NCBI GenBank assembly: GCA_038209995.1
Contig: JBBQXD010000003.1
Span: 89,079 to 153,078, forward strand
Origin: Candidatus Limnocylindria bacterium
GTDB lineage: Bacteria; Chloroflexota; Limnocylindria; QHBO01
Reading direction: 5' to 3'
Length of the DNA stretch: 64,000 nucleotides
Shown here: positions 1,145-6,243 of the stretch, in pieces
Layout: each line of letters opens with the position of its first letter
Numbering within the stretch: position 1 is the first letter of the stretch
Translations under genes and position numbers: made by a program
The notes under the pieces: generated by a model
Seen by the model: only the letters and a program-made list of their open reading frames with translations
The model's database searches: none
What the model was told of the DNA's origin: nothing

Positions 1145-2521
1145 TCAGCCTGCCTCGACCGCCCGCAGGATCGAGGCGACGCTGGCGTCGGCGTCGGCCT
1201 CGGTCGTCGACCAGTTGCTCACGCTGATCCGCATCGCGGCGACGCCGTGCCAGGTCGTGCCGCCGATCCAGGCCACGCCCTCGGCCTGGACCCGCTCGAT
1301 CACCCGCCGCGTCCGCTCGTCGTCGTCACCGAAGCGGACGAGCACCTGGTTGAGGACCACGTCGTTCAGGACGGCGACGCCGTCGGCCGCGCGCAGCGCG
1401 TCGGCCATCCGCGTCGCGAGGTCGCAGCAGCGCTCGACCATGGCGCACACACCCTCGCGTCCCAGGGAGCGGATGGCGGCGTAGAGCGCGAAGCCGCGCG
1501 CCCGCCGCGAGCTGTCGAGCACGTACTCCCAGTTCTCGCGCAGCTCGCTGCGCATGAGGTATGCGGCCGTGGCGGCCATCGCCGCGCGATGCGCATCAGG
1601 GTCGCGAACGGCCACGAACCCGCAGTCGTAGCCGGCATTGAGCCACTTGTGCGCGTCGGTCGACCAGCTGTCCGCGCGGCTGACGCCCTCGACCAGGTGC
1701 CCGAGGCGCGGCGAGGTTGCCGCCCAGAGGCCGAAGGCGCCGTCGACATGGACCCAGGCGTTGCCGTGCGCCGCCGCTGCCTCGGCCACCGCGGCCGCCG
1801 GGTCGAAGGCGCCGGTGTTCACGTTGCCCGCCTGGAGGATGACGATCACCGGCCCGTCGGCCGCGTCAATCGCGGCCACCGCGGCATCGGCTTGCATGCG
1901 GCCCTGGTCGTCGGTCGGGATGCGCGCCACGCGCTCGCGACCGAGGCCGAGGTAGCCGAGCGCAGTGGCGACGGTGGCGTGGGCCTCGTCGCCGATGACG
2001 ACCGTGATCGGTGGCGCACCGGAGAGGCCCTTCGCTTCCACGTCCCAGCCCTCGCGGGCCAGGACCGCGCGGCGGCCGGCCGCCAGACCCACCGCGTTGC
2101 CGAGCCCCGCTCCGGTCGGCAGGCCGACGCTCGCGTCGCGCGGCAGGCCGAGCAGCTCGAGCATCCAGCCGCCGGCCACCTCCTCGGCCGCCGCGGCTGC
2201 GGGCGACAGCGCATGGAGGGCGCCGTTCTGCTGCCAAGCGCCGGTGAGCCAGTCGGCGGCCGCCGCGGCCGGCAGCGCGCCGCCGATCACGAAGCCGAAG
2301 TAGCGTGGCCCGGCGGACGCGACGAGCCCGGGGTCGACGGCCGCGGCGAGCTCCTCCACGACCGCGGTGGGATCCATGCCGGCGTCCGGCAGCGTCCCTT
2401 GCAGACGCTCGCGCACCGCCGCCGCGTCGGCCGTCGCCCCGACGTGGCGCTCGTCCAGGGAGTCGAGGAATGCGAGGCTGAGCTCCGCCGCACGGCGCAT
2501 GGCGTTAGCCCGTTCTTCCAT
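1145..2521 (-). CDS. pyridoxal-phosphate-dependent decarboxylase (group II, DDC/GAD/SPL-like)
   Basis: Fold-type I PLP motifs HVDGAFG and STDAHKWLNAGYDCG (PLP-lysine region). Start chosen at the internal Met (MEERANAMRR). The track ORF extends to 2554. Confidence 0.65.
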   Translation of the reverse strand: MEERANAMRRAAELSLAFLDSLDERHVGATADAAAVRERLQGTLPDAGMDPTAVVEELAAAVDPGLVASAGPRYFGFVIGGALPAAAAADWLTGAWQQNGALHALSPAAAAAEEVAGGWMLELLGLPRDASVGLPTGAGLGNAVGLAAGRRAVLAREGWDVEAKGLSGAPPITVVIGDEAHATVATALGYLGLGRERVARIPTDDQGRMQADAAVAAIDAADGPVIVILQAGNVNTGAFDPAAAVAEAAAAHGNAWVHVDGAFGLWAATSPRLGHLVEGVSRADSWSTDAHKWLNAGYDCGFVAVRDPDAHRAAMAATAAYLMRSELRENWEYVLDSSRRARGFALYAAIRSLGREGVCAMVERCCDLATRMADALRAADGVAVLNDVVLNQVLVRFGDDDERTRRVIERVQAEGVAWIGGTTWHGVAAMRISVSNWSTTEADADASVASILRAVEAG

Positions 2522-2841
2522 GGCGGCAGCGTAGCCGACGGGGCACGTCGGCAAACTGCCAGGCCACCGCCGATCGTCCGGATTGACGGCGGGACCCGCC
2601 CGCGCCTAGAGCCCCATTCCCTCAGACACTTGGCGCAGATCTACCTGAATGACAACAAGCGTTGGATCCGCCAACAGATGCGTGAACGAAAGATCATCGT
2701 TGACATCGGTCCAACAAAGTCTACCGACTCGATCGCCAGCATCTACTATTGGATGGAGTACTCGGTCACGATGGGCTACCTGGGGGTCATCCGCGCGTGG
2801 GGATGCACCAGGCGTCGCCTCGTGAGGAGGTCGCATCGACG

Positions 2842-3315
2842 ATGAGCCGGCCGGCGAACACTCCTTTGATTTTCTCCGATGTGTGCATTCAGGCGGCGCT
2901 CTTGGCCCGGGGAGACTGGATGGGCGTCGACGAACTCATGATCGACTACGAATACATCGCGCGGTCGACGCCATCGTTCGACAGTCTCAGCTTTGGAATC
3001 GCGCGGCTGGTCGCGAACGGCTTGGTGCAGGTCCGCGATGAGCCGAGTGAATCGTTCATGATGAGAGCCACGCAACGTACGTTTCGCACCGCTACGCCCG
3101 GTGTGGGCGTGATCGATTTCGCGATTCAATTGGCCCACGAGCTCGGAGTGACCCTCGACGAAAATCGGGAGGAAGATCGTTCTCATGGACGTGTCGACGG
3201 CCTAACCTACACGGAATACCAGAAGGCGGCGGGCGCCGGCGGCGAGTGGAAACATCTCGTTGACTCGCGCCTCCCGGGGGCACGCGGGCGCGACGGGCGC
3301 CCCCGCGAGGGCTGA
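2842..3315 (+). CDS. hypothetical protein (lower-GC islet)
   Basis: ATG preceded by GAGGAGG at the correct spacing. Local GC is visibly lower than in flanking genes. No recognisable motif. Confidence 0.4.
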   Translation: MSRPANTPLIFSDVCIQAALLARGDWMGVDELMIDYEYIARSTPSFDSLSFGIARLVANGLVQVRDEPSESFMMRATQRTFRTATPGVGVIDFAIQLAHELGVTLDENREEDRSHGRVDGLTYTEYQKAAGAGGEWKHLVDSRLPGARGRDGRPREG

Positions 3316-3463
3316 TCATGGTGGCACGGAAGGGCTCGCCGTGGCCGTGGCTTGTCGGCGGCGGTGGAGCGGGGGCTCTCTGGTGGCTCGCAAAGGGACT
3401 CGCGCCACTCTGCGGCCTGGGTGCCCCCGTCTGCGCGTGGGCGCTTTGAGCCCCGGAGCCCCA

Positions 3464-4153
3464 ATGAGCAGAAGTGTCCGCATCGTCGGGAGCCCGTCGA
3501 GTTGGCTCGTGATGCTGGAATTGCTCAGCCTCGATGGGGTCAGACCGTTCTGGTCACGGCTCAGCATCCGAGTGCGCCGCCAGCGTGAGCTTCAATCGAT
3601 GCTCCGCGACATGGTGCTCAAGCTTCGCGCGGCCCATGCCCGTCGCAATCGCGCCGCGATGTCTCGTGAGATCATTGCCGGACTGGAGCGCATCCGTCAG
3701 GAGATCTCAAGTCCAGCGGCCGAATCGATCGTGCGGCTTCGTGACCTCGAGGAACGATGGATGGTGCGCCCCGGTCGTGATTGGATCGGTGCTCTGTGGC
3801 TGTACGTCTACCAGCCCCGCAGCCAAGACACGTTGTCGTCCGGCATTCGGCCACAGATCCGGCGCTTGATCAAAGCTCGACTGGCCAGTGACCTGTGGCT
3901 CGATGAGACTGCTGCTGCGCTGTTCCCCGCGAAGAGCACGTGGGACGCTGAAATCGTCGAATCTAGATTCGTGGGCGGCGGACCGGATGCAATGGCTAAC
4001 GCCCTTCGAGAGTTACTCGAAGCGAGGGCGTATGCTTCCTTGCGCCGCGCCCTCAGACAGCACCTCAAAGGGACCGAGCGAGAGGCGTTGCGATCATGGG
4101 CGGTCACGTACGCGCGTGAGGACGGGGTGCGACCGGAGTTGCCACGTCTCTGA
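3464..4153 (+). CDS. hypothetical protein (lower-GC islet)
   Basis: 229-aa ORF starting MSRSVRIVGSP and rich in Arg/Leu. No recognisable motif. The track ORF 3260..4153 is trimmed to the internal ATG. Confidence 0.4.
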   Translation: MSRSVRIVGSPSSWLVMLELLSLDGVRPFWSRLSIRVRRQRELQSMLRDMVLKLRAAHARRNRAAMSREIIAGLERIRQEISSPAAESIVRLRDLEERWMVRPGRDWIGALWLYVYQPRSQDTLSSGIRPQIRRLIKARLASDLWLDETAAALFPAKSTWDAEIVESRFVGGGPDAMANALRELLEARAYASLRRALRQHLKGTEREALRSWAVTYAREDGVRPELPRL

Positions 4154-4169
4154 ATGGTCAAGGCCCCCG

Positions 4170-4745
4170 GCCGGCGCCGCCACCTGCGCCAGCCCAAACC
4201 TCACCCACGACTCCGCCGGCCGCACCGCGACCTGGAACGGCTGGACGTTCGGGTATGACGCCGACGGCCGGATGGTGAGCGCCTGCAAGAGTCCCACCGG
4301 CGCGCCGCGCTACGACACGGTGACCTTCGCCTATGACGGCGCCGGCCATAGGCACCCAGATCAGGGCGACCTCCGCCGCGGGTGCGGTCGCCACGACCGC
4401 TTTCGGCTACGCGGGCGCCGCGATCACCTCCGAGACGCTGACCGACGCATCCCACCGTCGGGCACTGTGGTGCGGCGCTACGCCGTCGACGGCGACGGGT
4501 CGATCGTGAAGGTCAGCATCCCGGGCGGCGAACCCGAGGCCGGTGACTGCCTCGTCACCTGGAACTGCCACGGCGACGCGCTCAACCTGCCGCGCCTCAA
4601 CGCCGACGGCACCACCACCCTCGCCAACAGCTACGCCTATTCATCAGGGGTGCGCCGACGACGTTCACCGACAACGGCATCGGCGACCTCGGCTTCCGCT
4701 TCCTGTACGTCGGCCGCCACGACGTGCAGTGGGACAATCCGTTAG
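4170..4745 (+). pseudogene. RHS/YD-repeat protein remnant (frameshifted, ends in an in-frame TAG)
   Basis: YD-repeat matches: TWNGWTFGYDADGRMVSA, YDTVTFAYDGAG, VRRYAVDGDGSIVKVSIPGGE, TLANSYAYSS. Alternate frames carry further YD-like text (AFGYAGAAITSETLTD; GFRFLYVGRHDVQWDNPLGL). The frame is broken by at least two shifts and a TAG at 4743-4745. Confidence 0.55.
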
Positions 4746-4763
4746 GGCTCGGCCTGGCCTTAC

Positions 4764-5324
4764 ATGCACGCCCGCCACTACGCGCCGGCGCTGGGACGGT
4801 TCCTGCAGCCTGACCCGGCTCGGCTGGAATCGAATAGTTACGGCTATGCCCGAGAAAATCCATTGACGAGGATGGATGCCAGCGGAACGGAGAGTTGGAC
4901 ACCGAACTCCTGGGAGTGGTCCGCTTGCTTCAAGTATCCGATCGCATGCGCCAGGTGGATGCGCGCCTCCTTCCTGGCACTGGTCGCAACCAGGACCATC
5001 TCGAGCGAGCGGCAACGCAATGCCATGAGACACTGCATCTGGAACTGCCTCATGACGGAGTCAATGAGGGCCTCGTGGGCGAATCTCTGGGCATACCTGC
5101 ACGAGGCTGGCGGTCCATTCCAACCGTTGGATACGCGTGTCGACCTCCACAATAACCGCGTAGGCGTGCTGTTCGGGCAGCAGGCCGGATTCTGGTTCTC
5201 GGGTCTTCCATGGGCGGCTGGCTTTTGCGAGGGCGTATGGAGGCGGGGACGGCTCTGGTATGTGGAATACAACAGAGTGGTCCGCACGTCCCTCGGAGTT
5301 AATGTGCCCAACGGTGCGCGCTAG
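4764..5324 (+). CDS. RHS C-terminal tip: core-end motif plus variable putative toxin domain (orphan)
   Basis: Same frame as the upstream remnant. Begins within the RHS core-end consensus (Y)MHARHYAPALGRFLQPDPARLESNSYGYARENPLTRMDASG. This is followed by about 140 aa of lower-GC sequence with conserved-looking His/Asp/Asn residues (AMRHCIWNCLM, AYLHEAGGP, DTRVDLHNNRVG). Confidence 0.6.
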   Translation: MHARHYAPALGRFLQPDPARLESNSYGYARENPLTRMDASGTESWTPNSWEWSACFKYPIACARWMRASFLALVATRTISSERQRNAMRHCIWNCLMTESMRASWANLWAYLHEAGGPFQPLDTRVDLHNNRVGVLFGQQAGFWFSGLPWAAGFCEGVWRRGRLWYVEYNRVVRTSLGVNVPNGAR

Positions 5325-5343
5325 GTAAATCGGCACAAAGACG

Positions 5344-5793
5344 ATGTTGAAGCAGATCGGGCTCGACCGGATCGTCCGGGCAGTTGTTCTCGTCGAAGTC
5401 ATCGGTATCATCGTGCTGGCTGGCTCGATCTTGTTCGATCCTCCTCCCCCGTACCGCACCGACATCGAGCGAGGGGTTTGGACCCTGATCAGCATTGACG
5501 GCCACGTTCAGCCGCCACCCGCACCACAGCTTGCTTTCCGAGGCGACGGCATGACTTGGACGAGCGACTGCCAAACGATCACCGGGGATGCGGTTCGCGA
5601 CAGTGACGGATCGATGATGCTCATTGGTGGCTTTCGGGTGCTGGCTGCTCGATGTTCACCTCAGCAAGACGCCGCCGAAAGGGCGCTCTTGGACGCGCTC
5701 GCGACTACCGAAACGTGGAGCGTCGAGACTGAGGACCTCATCGTGCTCCGCGGGGGTCGACACTCCATCACGCTGGCCCGGATCCCATCCTGA
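5344..5793 (+). CDS. membrane-anchored META/HslJ-like domain protein; candidate immunity protein for the upstream RHS tip
   Basis: Starts 20 nt after the tip stop. N-terminal TM helix (IVRAVVLVEVIGIIVLAGSILF), then a META-like pattern (WTLISIDG ... GSMMLIGGFRVLAARCSPQQ ... ETWSVETEDLIVLRGG). Lower GC. Confidence 0.5.
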   Translation: MLKQIGLDRIVRAVVLVEVIGIIVLAGSILFDPPPPYRTDIERGVWTLISIDGHVQPPPAPQLAFRGDGMTWTSDCQTITGDAVRDSDGSMMLIGGFRVLAARCSPQQDAAERALLDALATTETWSVETEDLIVLRGGRHSITLARIPS

Positions 5794-5802
5794 GCTGCCA
5801 GC

Positions 5803-6243
5803 GTGGGTCGCTCCTATCCCGGACAGCGCATAACGTTGCCGGATACGGTCGGCCGCCCGCCTCGTGACGCACGCCTCTCGGGCCGTGAGGCTTGGAAGGC
5901 TGCCGCTCTGCCAACTGAGCGGCGCGTCTCGCCTGATTTGGGGCGCATAACGATCATCCTCGCCAACCCGTCGAAGCCAGAAAGGCCCACCGCGGGCACC
6001 ACGATCCAAGAGCAGACGCGACAGTGCCTCGCGAACATCGCCGCCATCCTCAAGGCGGCCAGCAGCTCGATGGAGCAGGTCGTGAGCGCCACGTTCATCC
6101 TGCGCCGGCCTGAGGAACTCGCCGGCATGAACGAGGAGTTGGCGCGCTGGTTCCCGGTCGACCCGCCGGCCCGCCAGGGCGCGAAGGACCCGCTCGAGGT
6201 CGGCGACGCCCTCATCTCGATCGCGGCCATCGCGGTGACCTGA
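5803..6243 (+). CDS. ridA: RidA/YjgF/TdcF family (reactive enamine/imine deaminase)
   Basis: Aligns by eye to RidA over EQTRQCLANIAAILKAASSSMEQVVSATFIL ... ARWFP ... PARQGAKDPLEVGDALISIAAIAV. GTG start. Confidence 0.6.
   Translation: MGRSYPGQRITLPDTVGRPPRDARLSGREAWKAAALPTERRVSPDLGRITIILANPSKPERPTAGTTIQEQTRQCLANIAAILKAASSSMEQVVSATFILRRPEELAGMNEELARWFPVDPPARQGAKDPLEVGDALISIAAIAVT

Follow-up and report, generated by a model that had tools for sequence, protein, structure and literature searches.

A probable orphan rhs remnant in a Limnocylindria genome, with an intact Min-Wnt (DUF6973) toxin tip and a candidate META-domain immunity gene

The bacterial Min-Wnt domain, a five-helix domain repeatedly recruited as a toxin tip (Burroughs, Nicastro & Aravind, eLife 2025; PMC12419801), is the proposed bacterial ancestor of the animal Wnt proteins. 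Its mechanism is disputed: comparative genomics predicts an esterase acting on the head groups of lipid carriers, whereas one experimental study reports a non-enzymatic binder of OmpA. Here we describe a member of this family encoded in a 64,000-nucleotide stretch of a Candidatus Limnocylindria genome (contig JBBQXD010000003.1, positions 89,079 to 153,078 of the forward strand; hereafter "the window"). Positions 4173-5793 of the window probably represent an orphan, decayed rhs toxin module, in which an rhs gene has kept only its final ~380 codons, including an intact Min-Wnt tip, and is followed by an adjacent, putative immunity gene.

The experimental study concerns BteO, a type VI secretion system (T6SS) effector of B. 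fragilis GA3 (PDB 9UU0; He et al., PNAS 2025; PMC12541434). It exerts its toxicity in the periplasm only, and the changes R143A, H144A, H167A, E168A, D187A and D191A each affect a residue whose replacement abolishes both toxicity and in-vivo competitiveness. The authors claim that the protein clamps OmpA_C-like domains without enzymatic action; the phenotypes that they report (elongation, blebbing, lysis and altered muropeptides) fit both an enzyme and a binder model. A second point of reference is TelC, an LXG toxin of the type VII secretion system with lipid II phosphatase activity, which belongs to the same Lipocone superfamily, shows its activity solely outside the cytoplasm and is countered by TipC, a membrane-anchored extracytoplasmic immunity protein (PMC12419801). 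In metazoan Wnts (e.g. PDB 7KC4, 8TZO, 4F0A and 4KRR), in contrast, the catalytic residues have disappeared; these proteins bear large Cys-rich hairpin insertions as well as a palmitoleoylated Ser and are signalling ligands rather than toxins (PMC12419801).

In the window, the tip lies in an open reading frame (ORF) of 186 amino acids (4764..5324, plus strand) that begins MHARHYAPALGRFLQPDP...ENPLTRMDASG and carries the motifs RHCIWNC (residues 89-95), LHEAGG (112-117) and DTRVDLHNNRVG (123-134), exactly as an initial annotation, made from the sequence alone, had read them. That annotation overlooked that the ATG at 4764 is not the true gene start, and it did not recognise a decayed orphan fragment; the ORF continues in frame from the rhs remnant at 4173-4763. 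Its residues 1-41 are the C-terminal half of the TIGR03696 Rhs_assc_core domain, the N-terminal half being found in a different frame by three-frame blastp. At the processing motif, the window copy reads DASG, as opposed to DPxG in 17/17 RHS-linked relatives. The toxin domain itself is free of lesions and the immunity ORF is intact. The parts of the module are as follows.

4173..4763, plus strand: remnant of the RHS/YD-repeat shell, a pseudogene segment (tblastn, three-frame blastp, DNA reading, three-frame translation, weak RHS_repeat Pfam match).
4764..4886, plus strand: RHS-associated core domain, C-terminal tail, RHYAPALGRFLQPDP...MDASG (TIGR03696, E 1.2e-11; motif count).
4908..5288, plus strand: Min-Wnt/DUF6973 toxin domain (residues ~49-175 of the ORF), built of five helices with a beta-hairpin at the C-terminus.
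5344..5793, plus strand: candidate immunity gene, 149 amino acids, with a transmembrane helix at about residues 12-30 and an extracytoplasmic META domain at residues 40-135 with two conserved Cys (Pfam PF03724, E 4.3e-8).

Residues 55-138 of the tip ORF score 60.6 bits with the Pfam model PF22322 (DUF6973), whose cutoff is 27 (E 1.4e-16). When 1.84 billion representatives were searched exhaustively with HMMER, 219 relatives of the tip came out at E<=1e-3; DUF6973 was recognized in 146 of the 147 best ones, and two relatives matched the Pfam "wnt" model weakly. Two Min-Wnt sequences from the source data of PMC12419801 match DUF6973 (E 6e-14 and 1.4e-11), and one Min-Wnt sequence from that work aligned to a 99-sequence profile of the tip with an hhalign probability of 98.8% (E 1e-16). 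Because published Min-Wnt sequences match both the DUF6973 model and the tip profile, the two names denote, as judged by sequence, one and the same family. The tip is a further member of an already described toxin family, and the suggestion of the initial annotation that it might be a new polymorphic-toxin domain must be abandoned. Its exclusion of HNH/GHH nucleases, deaminases, ADP-ribosyltransferases and HExxH peptidases was correct, and so was its view of the ORF as a polymorphic-toxin tip placed after an RHS core: a TIGR03696 tail precedes the DUF6973 domain, and relatives occur behind RHS/YD shells. According to its citation in PMC12419801, a paper by Burroughs & Aravind (2020) had covered the family earlier. 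Other searches returned little: phmmer with the tip ORF against the PDB found RHS-core tails only, and in a word-indexed protein search the tip matched only itself, and the META protein nearly so.

The DUF6973 domain lies 60 residues or less from the C-terminus in 141/150 relatives. Relatives with RHS/YD shells (P0003, P0027, P0034 and P0124) reach 2064 amino acids and have a signal peptide, intact Rhs relatives measuring 1850-2100 amino acids; 11 proteins carry eCIS_core/DUF4157 domains, lipoprotein or signal peptides are found on short proteins, and an OmpA_C-like domain occurs in a few relatives. This C-terminal position behind several N-terminal classes constitutes a polymorphic-toxin signature. 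In a scan of GTDB representatives, the nearest genome relatives of the tip were metagenome-assembled genomes (MAGs) of Chloroflexota. Three relatives (P0112, P0113 and P0119) have the order eCIS_core (DUF4157), OmpA_C-like domain, Min-Wnt; this fusion of a Min-Wnt domain to a domain of the type reportedly bound by BteO is relevant to the debate between enzyme and binder.

Single-sequence AlphaFold prediction of the 186-residue ORF was unusable (predicted local distance difference test [pLDDT] 38). With the 99-sequence alignment, a model of five helices and a C-terminal hairpin was obtained (pLDDT 93.6, predicted template modelling score 0.89), which has the predicted five-helix Wnt core of Min-Wnt and Lipocone proteins. 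Structure comparison scored 15.0 with BteO (9uu0_B; root-mean-square deviation 2.4 A over 126 residues, 21% identity), 10.3 with a Wnt chain (7kc4_D) and 6.7 with Drosophila WntD (4krr), so that the earlier statement that the domain has no known fold no longer holds. The profile hidden Markov model (HMM) of the tip likewise matches 9uu0 (E 4e-17) and Wnt-7a (E 5e-3), with Wnt-5a, Wnt-3a and Wnt-8 just below; all Wnt matches fall over the stretch ...A-x-E...D/L-H-N-N-x-x-G-R. In a viral structure library, the best matches were phage "DUF6973 domain-containing" proteins and a PcfJ-like fusion, in agreement with the distribution of Min-Wnt domains given in PMC12419801.

The Lipocone pattern consists of a His in helix H2, a Glu in H3, which ends in an acidic residue, and an Asp in H4 with a polar residue further downstream and a Gly as cap (PMC12419801). 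Conservation was scored over 99 aligned relatives of the tip (ORF numbering). H90, W93 and E114 are present in 99/99, D127, N130 and N131 in 98/99, G134 in 97/99, A106 and H113 in 96/99, A87 and R89 in 95/99, and an Asp or Glu at position 123 in 73/99. The window copy retains all of these residues, D123 included, and the Lipocone polar set is represented by H90, E114, D123, D127, N130/N131 and G134. The His, Glu, Asp and Asn residues picked out by eye in the initial annotation are thus family-invariant in this alignment. The replacements that abolish BteO toxicity lie within its RH, HE and Asp motifs, which are likewise the invariant motifs of the family to which the window tip belongs. Shared with the Min-Wnt family at large are the motif A-x-R-H-x-x-W ... 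H-E ... D-x-x-N-N-x-x-G, the five-helix core, the C-terminal position behind RHS or DUF4157 trunks or lipoprotein signals, and a membrane-anchored partner; the window differs in that this partner is a META protein, in that its subfamily has five conserved Cys, and in that its copy is a truncated, frameshifted orphan.

The cysteines behave differently from the polar set. C91 is Cys in 63/99 relatives and Ala in 23, and C95 is Cys in 46/99. Cys co-occurs at C55 and C62 (both in 39, one alone in 2 and 3; p 1.5e-21) and at C91 and C155 (both in 53, one alone in 10 and 1; p 1.4e-16), relatedness being uncontrolled in both p values. These patterns suggest two likely disulfides, C55-C62 and C91-C155, and hence an extracytoplasmic protein. 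A papain-like or other Cys-nucleophile enzyme was considered and rejected, since C91 varies among the relatives and follows the pattern of a disulfide partner; the alignment thus indicates that the cysteines of RHCxWxC are not catalytic.

The META gene begins 20 nt past the stop codon of the tip ORF. The order toxin-META is seen again at three further loci, namely L001, which is a metagenome contig from JGI (30% identity, E 1e-16; Pfam E 1e-7), L006, a Ca. Limnocylindrales MAG (Pfam E 3e-6), and L008, a Chloroflexia MAG with a full-length Rhs protein of 1858 amino acids (Pfam E 5e-5, slightly below the gathering score). The META proteins of these loci are lipoproteins, with a lipobox followed by Cys, and have two conserved Cys. 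L001 and L006 being near-duplicates, the independent cases of toxin-META linkage number three, the window included. The META protein is probably the immunity protein of the tip, as the gene order suggests. Whether membrane-anchored META (HslJ-like) proteins make up an undescribed immunity family for Min-Wnt toxins in this Chloroflexota-type Rhs lineage is, in our estimate, evenly balanced. The immunity types listed for Min-Wnt toxins are BamE-like, jelly-roll, four-transmembrane and Cys-rich alpha+beta proteins, META not being among them (PMC12419801); the words "META" and "HslJ" are absent from the text of that paper and its 37 supplements, and no paper in the literature searched combines "META domain", "immunity protein" and "toxin". 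Pfam detected no OmpA match in the META protein, whereas an OmpA_C-mimicking partner of the BteO type would be expected to show one.

Other close relatives have other partners. A beta-rich family without Pfam match, anchored as lipoproteins or by a transmembrane segment, is found at L002-4, L005, L007, L013 and L016 (L002 7649-8119; L005 8456-8911; L007 2334-2930; L013 627-1112; L016 1689-2216) and shares the motifs W-H-E-S ... F-x-P ... Q-P ... Y-G-x-x-G-E-x-L-x-G-P. This family might provide a different type of immunity protein and could correspond to the "Imm-Jellyroll" of PMC12419801. Lipoprotein partners with a BamE-like look occur at L020, L031 and L036 and small proteins with several transmembrane segments at L014 and L017. 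In the polymorphic-type loci, all downstream partners are lipoproteins or transmembrane proteins, in agreement with PMC12419801.

These elements can be assembled into a working model. In intact relatives, the YD-repeat shell would enclose the tip, which would be set free at the DPxG motif and passed on to a neighbouring cell; its site of action there would be the cell envelope or the outer face of the cytoplasmic membrane rather than the cytoplasm. An extracytoplasmic site of action is quite likely, because BteO is toxic only in the periplasm, TelC is active only outside the cytoplasm, disulfides are probable and the partner proteins have the corresponding topology. There, a pocket formed by H90, E114 and D127, supported by R89, H113, N130 and N131, would attack a phosphate linkage of a lipid head group, for example cutting the diphospho-sugar-peptide head from the undecaprenyl carrier of lipid II, as TelC does, or of another undecaprenyl-PP-linked precursor; this would starve wall synthesis and lyse the cell. 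The META protein, whose domain projects outward from its membrane anchor, would bind the tip and block it. Head-group chemistry is favoured because the conserved set is polar, pocket-like and common to different delivery systems and phyla, yet enzymatic cleavage is put forward tentatively: the label "hydrolase" is a prediction, and the sole experimental paper on a family member disputes enzymatic action. TelC is the template for this mechanism but belongs to a different Lipocone family and uses a different delivery system.

Three observations qualify the picture just drawn. DSSP assigns RH and HE of the tip model to a single long helix. TelC gave no match in the profile-HMM or fold searches with the tip. 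Finally, a META gene aligned to window positions 5389-5829 with 76% protein and 80% DNA identity (L063, 4105-4557) adjoins a CW_binding_2 repeat protein, and neither Min-Wnt nor RHS sequence lies upstream of it. This gene could be an orphan immunity copy standing alone, or the linkage between META and toxin may be looser than it appears.

An alternative that keeps the family assignment and the orphan status is that the tip is a non-enzymatic binder which, like BteO, clamps a peptidoglycan-associated (OmpA_C-like) envelope protein. The RH/HE/D groove would then do the clamping and disturb wall homeostasis, and the immunity protein would occupy the same groove. Apart from their shared fold, however, BteO and the window tip differ in delivery (T6SS as opposed to an Rhs shell) and in partner: BtiO, the BteO immunity protein, is an OmpA_C-like mimic, whereas the window encodes a META protein. 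The closest relatives of the tip come from Chloroflexota MAGs, where a Bacteroides-type OmpA target does not seem obviously present. Furthermore, a set of His, Glu, Asp and Asn that hardly varies across delivery systems and very distant lineages is what one would sooner expect of catalysis than of binding to a single protein partner, and the pattern is common to the wider Lipocone superfamily, which includes true enzymes (PMC12419801). The BteO study itself assayed peptidoglycan glycosidase and amidase activities only, and so does not exclude cleavage of lipid II (PMC12541434). On these grounds, a purely binding mode of action seems unlikely for the window tip, and lipid head-group cleavage is retained as the tentative mechanism.

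The rhs sequence preceding the tip shows extensive decay. In tblastn comparisons with three Rhs relatives, homology starts abruptly at position 4173, and the shell remnant (4173..4763) corresponds to residues 384-~590 of P0003, a 769-residue fragment, and to residues 1684-~1890 of the full-length P0034 (2064 residues). About 1680 N-terminal residues, including the signal peptide and shell, are absent, and the part of the shell that remains is frameshifted. The frame changes four times, near 4350, 4456, 4645 (one base lost from the TGG of "YSSWG") and 4757 (an additional T ahead of TAC ATG), and the main frame has an in-frame TAG stop at 4743-4745. These lesions are not the artefact of one assembler, since a Logan contig assembled separately (L062, run SRR19962013) is identical to window positions 2276-5919 over 3644 bp, gap-free. 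As in functional Rhs loci, a variable C-terminal toxin is followed by a small immunity gene; the continuous YD-repeat shell ORF and the N-terminal export or delivery region are lacking. With the N-terminal residues absent and the rest of the shell frameshifted, the sequence indicates that the toxin of the window copy cannot be delivered.

Could the gene nonetheless be intact and functional, its lesions being sequencing or assembly errors, or could the 186-residue ORF be a working stand-alone toxin? The four indels come in compensating pairs, so that the distal ORF stays in the original frame, the toxin domain has no lesion, and garbled frames in P0005, P0015 and L005 hint at error-prone assemblies. 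Yet even with the indels repaired, only ~380 of ~2000 residues remain; the homology begins abruptly behind an unrelated ORFan (see below), with no signal peptide or N-terminal domain; the second assembler yields the identical sequence; a stand-alone product of 186 residues would have no export signal; and the conserved DPxG has changed to DASG. A functional gene or toxin is therefore very improbable. The orphan rhs modules of Enterobacteria reportedly consist of a 3' fragment from inside the core-encoding region, followed by an immunity gene, and are said to have neither start nor export domain. The window differs from these in that it has no full-length rhs gene nearby (tblastn with Rhs relatives found none in the 64 kb) and in that its fragment, interrupted by a stop and by four frameshifts, seems to be in decay instead of ready to recombine. 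The most economical view of the locus is that of a toxin/immunity orphan module that is decaying and is kept for immunity; it is probably in the role of an immunity gene, and possibly of a recombination reservoir as well, that the element persists.

The idea of an unrecognised toxin fold or new hydrolase class, such as a papain-like enzyme using the cysteine of RHC, has in its favour that Pfam still calls the family a "domain of unknown function", that Foldseek with the tip model found no match in the PDB and that "DUF6973" is unmentioned in the literature searched, but is refuted by the Pfam DUF6973 match, the 9uu0 matches and the equivalence of DUF6973 and Min-Wnt, and retains hardly any probability. 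Modest novelty lies in the type of partner, META, and in the Rhs subfamily, which is high in GC, has five conserved Cys and finds its nearest genome relatives among Chloroflexota MAGs.

The module occupies one end of a low-GC island, which comprises the following further features.

2400..5800, no strand: low-GC island, in which the rhs remnant and the candidate immunity gene lie together with two ORFan genes (composition profile; L062).
2842..3315, plus strand: ORFan of 157 amino acids (no Pfam or PHROG match).
3464..4153, plus strand: ORFan of 229 amino acids, directly upstream of the start of rhs homology (self-match only; no Pfam or PHROG match).

The GC fraction of the island is ~0.58-0.66, as compared with 0.70-0.78 in the flanks. 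The 229-residue ORFan, which matched itself alone among 5.8 billion protein clusters, ends 20 nt before the rhs homology begins and marks the 5' truncation point of the rhs gene. A phage or mobile-element origin of the island was considered and found no backing in PHROG matches, tRNA genes, flanking repeats, or noteworthy promoters or terminators. Both ends of contig L062 lie near the island borders (about 2400 and 5800), which could be due to a break in the assembly, from coverage or from variation between strains, on either side of an acquired island.

Some observations were made on related loci. In a Chloroflexia MAG (L005, 7169-8459), the rhs frame changes exactly at the junction of RHS core and toxin, and the database proteins P0005, P0015 and P0019 contain out-of-frame stretches; these cases reflect either frequent gene decay or indel errors of assembly. 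At 3296-3721, locus L007 carries a further rhs core tail of the orphan type (…HYMHARHYAPALGRFLQPDP…DPDG), joined to a tip that is different and hydrophobic; it lies downstream of the Min-Wnt rhs gene and its immunity gene, in the classic orphan-module arrangement. Short stand-alone DUF6973 proteins are encoded on marine or Bacteroidota-like contigs (L034, L035, L040, L047, L048, L055, L056, L060 and L061) and are followed directly by a conserved gene of ~300 codons that looks like a housekeeping gene rather than an immunity gene and that, we presume, resembles hemF. These proteins fit the class of "diffusible toxin without immunity" of PMC12419801.

In genome annotation, the label for the tip should be that of a Min-Wnt (DUF6973) toxin remnant, Rhs-associated and accompanied by an immunity gene, rather than that of a new domain, and the locus illustrates how a toxin tip decays while its immunity gene is retained. 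The high-GC, Chloroflexota-related Rhs subfamily, with its intact relatives and two simple types of lipoprotein immunity protein, offers independent test cases in envelopes unlike that of Bacteroides. If the immunity role of the META protein is true, it would be the first defined molecular role for a META domain, namely blocking the Wnt-like, lipid-directed groove of a toxin at the outer face of the membrane, and the toxin/META pair would be a tractable system for settling whether Min-Wnt domains are enzymes or binders.
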